The notes: generated by a model from the sequence alone, not told the origin. 12,317 bases of DNA from a virus (IMGVR_UViG_2690316115_000015:1-12317), one strand, 5' to 3'; counted from the stretch's first letter, positions 151-1,334 are shown. A program made the numbers and translations.

Positions 151-732
151 TCACTGGGTAAGCTCGTTTGGTTTTAAATGTCCGTCGAGAATCAGATTGT
201 GATTTTCCCGATGCAGAACCAGTGTGCCCATATAATCAGGTTTAAATCTCCATCCATTCATTTTTTTTGCAATTCTGGACAGACAGTGATTATGTGTGAA
301 AATCACAGTAACATGATCTGATTTTGATATTTTAAGGATATTATTTACTGCGTTATCATCACATGTCGATATGTCCGGAATAGTTGCTGTCTTACCTCCC
401 GAAAAAAAAGTGGCTGTCTGCATTGTTCGGAGTGTGTCTGTAGAATAGAGACTGTAGTATGGAAACATTCTTCTGAATTTATCTCCATATTGTTGAGCTT
501 TGTTAGCTCCGTTTACTGTGATTCCCTCATGTGCTGAAAGACATATTCTTTGGGAGCGATCGCATCTTTCCCCATGCCGGATGAGAAAAATAATGGGATG
601 TTTCTGGTTAATCTCAGTGACATCGTTCACATCAAGTCTGACTGGAGTTCTTACAATGTATATGATGGATACAGAAACGATTATGACAAGTAAAAATATA
701 AGAAGAGATTTTGTTAGCGTTTGATTTAACAT
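151..732 (-). CDS. Ais/PmrG-family histidine phosphatase (LPS core heptose(II)-phosphate phosphatase homolog) with N-terminal signal/anchor segment
   Basis: The translation carries the histidine-phosphatase catalytic motif RHGERCDRS and a second conserved block VIFTHNHCL...FKPDY. Both line up closely with E. coli Ais as I recall it (RHAERCDRS, IVIFTHNHCL, FKPDY), with conserved spacing across the whole protein. A hydrophobic N-terminal stretch (LLIFLLVIIVSVSIIYIV) fits a periplasmic or membrane-anchored protein. I place the start at the ATG at 730-732, which has an AAGGGA Shine-Dalgarno ~7 nt upstream; the ORF-track start at 765 has no SD and overlaps a -10-like hexamer. The gene is AT-rich compared with the phage operon. 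Confidence 0.8.
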   Translation of the reverse strand: MLNQTLTKSLLIFLLVIIVSVSIIYIVRTPVRLDVNDVTEINQKHPIIFLIRHGERCDRSQRICLSAHEGITVNGANKAQQYGDKFRRMFPYYSLYSTDTLRTMQTATFFSGGKTATIPDISTCDDNAVNNILKISKSDHVTVIFTHNHCLSRIAKKMNGWRFKPDYMGTLVLHRENHNLILDGHLKPNELTQ

Positions 733-766
733 ATAAATTCCCTTGTCTGTGTTGAAAATGGGCATT

Positions 767-796
767 ATTATGCGTAAATCTTATGTAATCCTTAAG
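767..796 (-). promoter_or_regulatory. Candidate promoter for the Ais-like gene with a PmrA/BasR-box-like direct repeat
   Basis: On the minus strand: CTTAAG-GATTA-CATAAG (plus coordinates 796 to 780), then 7 nt, then CATAAT (plus 772-767) as a -10-like hexamer. The repeat resembles the YTTAAK-N5-YTTAAK PmrA box as I remember it. It sits inside a perfect 14-bp palindrome AATCCTTAAGGATT (787-800). Confidence 0.3.
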
Positions 797-1334
797 GATT
801 GTCTGACGTGGTGATATGACGCGAAATACAGTGGGTACACAGAATGCTGTGAACAACGACGAAATGGGCATTGGTAGCGGTACTGGTGCTTTTTTTATTG
901 GTTGGTTGCTCAAGTCTTGATAAAGCGCGTTAGCTTTTTGGTATTGCCTCTTAGGTCTGTAAAATTGCCGACGGTGTCCGGCAGTGCATGCAGGGCTGAT
1001 CGTCTATGAGAACAGAATATATTGCTAAAAATGAAGTGTGCGTCAATGCTTATAAAGCATGCAATTCTGTATTTCTAACTATTCAATAAAATAAATTCTT
1101 TCTGTCGCAGTGAATATACAAATGTTGATCAGCGCTCGATGTGGCGACGGGTTTCTATATCAGGAGACTTTGGCATTTATCCGCGAGGCAGCCTATCTGG
1201 TGCTGTAGTGGAATGAAGCGGATATAACCTAAATAAGGTTAAACATTAATCAGACATGGCTCTGCTGTGTGAAATCTGAAAATTTACAGCAGTCATTGTG
1301 CATCAGTTTTTAACAGAGAACGTCAGAAGGTGAC

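Follow-up and report, generated by a model that had tools for sequence, protein, structure and literature searches.

A predicted PmrA/BasR-class promoter upstream of an ais-like moron in a lambdoid prophage of Escherichia coli

The window, meaning the whole stretch of DNA analysed here, comprises 12,317 nt of a viral sequence (IMGVR_UViG_2690316115_000015:1-12317), and all coordinates count from its first letter. Positions 103-1340 are 100% identical to a chromosomal prophage of E. coli O104:H4 C227-11, and this segment is contained at 99% identity or more in 43 of 5,426 complete E. coli genomes. Phage GER2, which matches the segment at 99.4% identity, is the only sequenced phage among the phage records to carry the allele. 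The comparison set consisted of E. coli genomes and IMG/VR contigs, phage records having given little comparative power. In the RefSeq annotation of C227-11, the gene order is Q antiterminator, SASA-family (NanS-like) esterase, holin, lysozyme, Rz-type lysis protein, moron region, terminase subunits and portal, with the Rz-type gene ending at window position 70 and the terminase subunits beginning at 1335. Since no stx genes occur between Q and the esterase, the host element is a stx-negative lambdoid prophage; the Stx prophage of O104:H4 was considered and rejected on the same annotation. In the C227-11 prophage (L089, 1838000-1858000), the early region is Rac-like (RecE, Kil) and the late region Stx-phage-like, yet with no stx genes at the position named; several toxin-antitoxin genes (hokD, Doc-family and RelE/ParE) are also present. 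At the scale of genes, the locus contains the following features.

71-807, minus strand: moron segment, a low-GC insert with the lysis cassette on one side and the packaging genes on the other
70-110, minus strand: hairpin resembling a terminator, with a U-rich tail, beyond the stop codon of the ais-like gene
151-732, minus strand: ais-like coding sequence (RefSeq WP_000934362.1, 193 aa)

The ais-like gene, flanked by the lysis genes on one side and the terminase genes on the other, is oriented antisense to the phage late operon, in a segment of 37.9% GC as against 54.0% for the structural genes. Prophages without the gene, such as L002, align with window 808-1168 at about 79% identity but are missing both the gene and its promoter region, and homology of the L002 type ends exactly at window 808, just upstream of the putative regulatory box described below. 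The gene is a moron in the classical sense: an extra gene set between conserved phage genes and missing from related phages, with atypical GC content, a predicted promoter of its own and a weakly supported terminator-like hairpin. At the hairpin, a terminator scan gave a match at 93-81 on the minus strand, and RNA folding gave an extended CUCUCC...GGAGAG stem followed by UGUUUUAU, with a z-score of -1.8 that lends it weak support. An Rfam scan of window 1-1400 matched no known RNA family. On the opposite strand, starting 84 nt from the ais-like ATG, is a small ORF of 34 aa (816-920, plus strand; MTRNTVGTQNAVNNDEMGIGSGTGAFFIGWLLKS), a truncated counterpart of a hypothetical protein of 60 aa in the ais-less prophages (L002 3009-3191), to which it is homologous and, with which it shares DNA from position 808. 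A weak sigma-70-like site, TTGTCT-17-TATTAT (743-771, plus strand; 9/12 matches), points toward this ORF and overlaps the minus-strand -10 region; its -35-like part is not conserved in the related prophage L005.

The encoded protein matches the NCBIfam model for ais-like proteins, NF011945, at 201.9 bits (cut-off 142), as well as Pfam His_Phos_1 (PF00300). Against the PmrG equivalog model, NF052369, it scores 113.2 bits, below the cut-off of 170, and it is 43% identical to K-12 Ais; the moron protein is a paralogue, not a PmrG equivalog. R52, H53 and E55, together with H147/H149, are invariant across 21 aligned homologues and correspond to the catalytic RHG and second histidine of histidine phosphatase branch 1, and a hydrophobic anchor at the N-terminus precedes the catalytic region. 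We predict that the product is a membrane-anchored Ais/PmrG-like phosphatase, the putative activity of which would be to dephosphorylate Hep(II) in the LPS core. Another member of the enzyme family on a mobile element is found on the pESBL plasmid of O104:H4, in the same strain background (PMC4288162). A literature search returned no description of a prophage ais-like gene or its regulation. The GER2 record (L003 2049-2591) annotates just a 90-aa phosphatase fragment plus an opposite-strand hypothetical ORF; since a tblastn search finds the complete 193-aa gene intact there, at 99.5% identity, this looks like a mis-annotation.

The intergenic region upstream of the gene spans 83 nt with 65% A+T, and contains the following elements, all but the palindrome read on the minus strand.

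739-744, minus strand: ribosome-binding site AAGGGA, 6 nt before the ATG at 732
755-760, minus strand: predicted zone of transcription initiation, about 7 nt past either -10 candidate, placed by sigma-70 geometry
764-769, minus strand: AATAAT, the most likely -10, 10 nt after the box and overlapping the in-frame ATG at 765-763
767-772, minus strand: CATAAT, the -10 of the initial annotation, 7 nt after the box
780-796, minus strand: putative PmrA/BasR-type box, with half-site 1 CTTAAG (796-791), spacer GATTA and half-site 2 CATAAG (785-780)
787-800, no strand assigned: perfect 14-bp palindrome AATCCTTAAGGATT, surrounding half-site 1

Two in-frame ATG codons are available to the gene, at 732-730 and 765-763 on the minus strand, and the initial annotation had moved the start from the latter to the former. 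The 193-aa RefSeq form, the alignment of homologues and the AAGGGA site, which is present at 744-739 as originally described, all agree with that move. Most homologues begin at a Met aligned with ATG 732, and such N-terminal extensions as do occur are mutually unrelated. An AGGA-like element is found at the equivalent place in L005, L007, L008 and L011, in contrast to ATG 765, before which there is no ribosome-binding site of the AGGA type. The true start is ATG 732, giving a protein of 193 aa. The 204-aa database form (P0001, for example) begins inside the predicted promoter, and as a point of annotation should be replaced by the 193-aa form. ATG 765 would, moreover, be untranslatable from the predicted transcript, because it lies in or upstream of the -10 with either of the two candidate hexamers.

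The minus strand from 796 to 780 reads CTTAAGGATTACATAAG, and the direct repeat CTTAAG-GATTA-CATAAG is located where the initial annotation had placed it. A pmra-box consists of two XTTAAY hexamers 5 nt apart that overlap the -35 element (PMC10570014). The two half-sites in the window fit 11 of 12 positions of the consensus (a direct repeat of XTTAAY, or YTTAAK, half-sites), and the spacer between them is 5 nt (11-bp periodicity), as PmrA/BasR boxes require. The single deviation is at position 2 of half-site 2, which has A in place of T; a validated half-site from Klebsiella pneumoniae, CCTAAG, deviates at the same position (PMC3973317). A search for YTTAAK-N5-YTTAAK with at most one mismatch returned this single site in the 12.3-kb window, where 0.35 would be expected over both strands. 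A scoring matrix was constructed from five sites outside this gene family, namely those of K-12 arnB, eptA, ugd and waaH and of K. pneumoniae pbgP, the four K-12 boxes having been read from extracted promoter sequences and the pbgP box having been footprinted (PMC3973317). With this matrix, a check that the initial annotation had proposed, the box scores 13.7 bits and stands clearly above background as the first of about 24,600 window positions, the runner-up reaching 9.8. The chromosomal sites score well above this, at 20.7-23.8 bits, values that are inflated in that these are the matrix's own training sites. Among 412,000 unique positions from enterobacterial loci, only about three matches of at least 13.7 bits fall outside the training sites, the ais-arnB regions and the ais-like genes.

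The strongest evidence comes from related mobile elements. Genes of the ais-like family occupy the same lysis-packaging slot in lambdoid prophages (L005-L008, L011 and L012), in IMG/VR contigs (L026-L036) and in L087 and L088, and they also occur, flanked by IS elements, on two plasmids (L009 and L010). Homologous boxes are present in L005-L012, L026-L029, L032, L036, L087 and L088. Besides the window, these genes represent five prophage lineages and one plasmid lineage, the coding DNA of which is 67-82% identical to that of the window, while the 100 nt directly upstream are 59-79% identical as against a background of about 53%. All six lineages keep a repeat of the xTTAAk-N5-xTTAAk type with the 5-nt spacer and a 10-nt gap to the -10 hexamer, although they share one ancestor, so that part of this conservation is common descent and not six independent events. 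The window and its representatives align as follows (half-site 1, spacer, half-site 2; gap; candidate -10).

Window: CTTAAG gatta CATAAG; gap atttacgcat; -10 AATAAT
L005: CTTAAG gatta CATAAG; gap atttacaaat; -10 AATAAT
L007: ATTAAT tgcct CATAAG; gap aatcacaagt; -10 TATAAT
L008: CTTAAG gactc CTTAAG; gap aattaccata; -10 AATAAT
L009: ATTAAG cgtta TTTAAT; gap gattagtgta; -10 AACAGT
L011: GTTAAG atttc CTTAAT; gap atttacaaaa; -10 CATAAT
L012: GTTAAG atttt CTTAAT; gap atttaagaaa; -10 TATATT

The TTAA of half-site 1, the TAA of half-site 2 and the A2 and T6 of the hexamer are identical in 7/7 representatives, whereas columns upstream of the box agree in just 3-5 of the 7, the flanks having decayed to background level. 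L008 has a perfect CTTAAG-N5-CTTAAG repeat, and L011, L012 and L087 have GTTAAG-N5-CTTAAT. The distance from the end of the box to the start codon is 47-54 nt in every lineage. In L007 (about 2395-2430), three phased half-sites, CTCAAG-N5-ATTAAT-N5-CATAAG, precede a perfect TATAAT, and a third, upstream BasR half-site is possible there.

The same alignment bears on the position of the -10. The initial annotation had chosen CATAAT, which is indeed present at 772-767, while voicing concern that its 7-nt gap from the box was too short; the conserved hexamer sits at 10 nt instead, and CATAAT now ranks below AATAAT, with which it overlaps by three bases, as the functional element. The hexamers found 10 nt after the box in the moron lineages are AATAAT, TATAAT, AATAAT, AACAGT, CATAAT and TATATT, all of which retain A2 and T6, and at 7 nt no hexamer comparable to CATAAT exists in L007, L008 or L009. 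In K-12, -10-like hexamers are likewise found 10 nt after the box at arnB (TAAAAT), ugd (TATTCT), waaH (TAAAAC) and eptA (GAGCAT), as read from sequence and not from mapped starts. Because the K-12 targets share the 10-nt gap and the moron family is consistent only there, AATAAT (769-764) is most likely the functional -10 in the window. The numbering of the K. pneumoniae pbgP promoter implies a box at about -37 to -21 and a gap of about 8 nt (PMC10570014), at variance with the 10 nt deduced here; the two together would place the known range from box to -10 at roughly 8-10 nt. The sequence 17 nt upstream of AATAAT is AGGATT, with 2/6 matches to TTGACA, and a generic promoter scan found no -35-containing sigma-70 promoter on the minus strand at the box region. 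The poor -35 match and the empty scan both fit an activator-dependent promoter. Taken together, the central proposal of the initial annotation, a promoter with a PmrA/BasR-type box upstream of the moron, is supported by the statistics and above all by conservation, and minus-strand positions 764-796 probably constitute an activator-dependent sigma-70 promoter of the PmrA/BasR class.

A different reader of a genuine regulatory repeat is an unlikely competitor. The site might be recognized by QseB, the closest paralogue of BasR, by another protein of the OmpR/PhoB family, or by a dimer on AATCCTTAAGGATT, in which case the signal would be other than that sensed by BasS. Direct repeats with 11-bp periodicity occur throughout the OmpR/PhoB family (PMC10570014, PMC3973317), and the second half-site departs from the consensus. 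The perfect 14-bp palindrome at 787-800 around the first half-site, described in the initial annotation, was absent from the output of a repeat search but was confirmed by script. This palindrome, however, is reduced to CCTTAAGG in L005, L006, L008 and L029, and nothing of it is kept beyond TTAA in L007, L009 and L011, whereas the direct repeat is conserved across lineages. CTTAAG is palindromic by itself, the 14-bp form is lineage-specific and its extension is probably incidental; a function for it as an operator was rejected on the ground that the other lineages do not conserve it. The TTAA core with a 5-nt spacer is, moreover, the PmrA signature, and the top score in the window was obtained with a matrix built from BasR/PmrA targets only. 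Finally, the chromosomal paralogue is a bona fide and direct target of PmrA/BasR (PMC12419081, PMC1525208), the E. coli BasR protein both binding and activating the chromosomal ais promoter (PMC12419081).

A coincidental likeness within AT-rich intergenic DNA, with the moron transcribed constitutively or by read-through, is more improbable still. TTAA-rich words are common in DNA that is 65% A+T, and one of the half-sites is imperfect. Nevertheless, in a Markov simulation of 200,000 sequences of 83 nt with the same composition, such a box arose with a probability of about 1e-3, and a box accompanied by a -10-like hexamer 9-11 nt downstream with a probability of about 1e-4. As noted, the window holds no second such site, and the generic scan of the minus strand yielded no promoter with a -35 element. 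Six diverged lineages retain the position of the box, its spacing and the -10, whereas the paralogues in genomic islands (L081, L083 and L085), used as negative controls, have no box upstream of position 2501, the best scores over 220 nt being 3.1-6.2 bits. Since the box is missing from these island paralogues, AT-rich upstream DNA does not by itself account for the motif, and we take it to be a selected feature of the mobile clade. Among the island paralogue proteins, P0036 and P0031 adjoin an EAL-domain gene and P0022 stands behind two AraC-type genes, which suggests that the island branch has a different regulatory context. P0066, which is related to the island paralogues, bears the historical name 'transcriptional activator AfrS'.

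The least credible reading, which we reject, assigns the box to the plus strand, where it would drive the packaging genes and the divergent small ORF (816-920), much as the K-12 ais-arnB box serves arnB. In its favour, CTTATG-TAATC-CTTAAG is also a one-mismatch match, K-12 ais and arnB do use one common box, and the weak promoter-like site at 743-771 faces the right way. Against it, no -10 follows on that strand, CGTGGT being the sequence 10 nt downstream; the box falls within the moron-specific segment, whose end is at 807; the neighbours differ between lineages while the distance from the box to the ais-like ATG is fixed; and the 743-771 site is not conserved in L005.

Returning to a BasR-dependent promoter on the minus strand, we infer BasR binding, the transcription start and the inducing signals as a model for this class. 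Phosphorylated host BasR would bind CTTAAG-N5-CATAAG as a head-to-tail dimer at the -35 location, where it would substitute for -35 recognition and recruit the sigma-70 holoenzyme to AATAAT; for PmrA at pbgP, head-to-tail binding and polymerase recruitment have been shown structurally (PMC10570014, PMC3973317). Transcription would begin near 755-760 and produce a leader of about 25 nt carrying AAGGGA, and translation from ATG 732 would yield the 193-aa membrane-anchored Ais/PmrG-like phosphatase. A lysogen would express the gene when BasS senses Fe3+ or mild acid, alongside the LPS-remodelling genes of the host. Given its antisense orientation to the late operon, the gene would have the box promoter as its only route of expression in a lysogen, and since the promoter design is conserved in related prophages, the envelope-stress sensor of the host is most likely what would switch the gene on.

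In broader terms, the balance of the evidence leans slightly toward the view that a mobile ais-like clade, distributed over the lambdoid lysis-terminase slot and plasmids, has long been kept under a compact private BasR-dependent promoter, by which temperate phages would plug an LPS-core enzyme into the BasSR iron/acid regulon. If this is true, the surface of a lysogen would change on host cues, which could affect tolerance of cationic peptides and metals, and also adsorption by rival phages using the LPS core. If BasR does drive the gene, prophage cargo would come within the BasSR (PmrAB) regulon of pathogenic E. coli, the O104:H4 lineage among them, and lysogens would have an extra, signal-controlled LPS-core phosphatase, such that polymyxin, cationic-peptide or Fe3+ tolerance and the availability of phage receptors could shift. 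It would also illustrate cleanly how a moron can be tied to one particular two-component system of its host.

Three known systems invite comparison. Like the lambdoid morons of the lysis-packaging slot, of which bor of lambda is an example, the locus consists of one gene that lies antisense to the late operon and has a predicted promoter of its own and a terminator-like hairpin; its base composition is atypical, and it is missing from otherwise related prophages. It differs from morons such as bor in its cargo, a homologue of an LPS-core phosphatase, and in the predicted dependence of its promoter on one particular two-component regulator of the host. With the chromosomal ais (pmrG) of E. coli and Salmonella, the moron shares the enzyme family that it encodes (NF011945). 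Unlike the moron, chromosomal ais is without a compact promoter, having only a box held in common with the divergent arnB and oriented for arnB; in K-12, about 190 nt separate this box from the ais GTG downstream. On the ais strand, the K-12 ais-arnB box (L004 5800-5835) has the sequence ATTAAC-TTAAC-CTTAAG, with TATTAG following after 7 nt. The initial annotation had suggested that the moron kept or acquired the regulation of its chromosomal paralogue; retention within the mobile clade has better support than retention from the chromosomal paralogue, given that the promoter architecture differs. Because K-12 ais uses an arnB-shared box some distance upstream, the moron promoter is best read as a compact, private form passed down inside the mobile clade and not as a copy of the E. 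coli chromosomal ais region.

The third likeness is to the established PmrA/BasR promoters of the Enterobacteriaceae. As at arnB/pbgP, eptA/pmrC, ugd and waaH/yibD, two xTTAAk hexamers form a direct repeat with a 5-nt spacer (PMC10570014, PMC3973317), and the box is oriented with transcription and stands in place of the -35, with a -10-like hexamer at 10 nt. In contrast to those core-chromosome promoters, the moron box sits on a prophage, its dependence on BasR is a prediction, its half-site 2 is CATAAG, and its score is 13.7 bits against the 20.7-23.8 bits of chromosomal sites that also trained the matrix. The predicted promoter would thus be a mobile addition to a well-known class of PmrA/BasR promoters.
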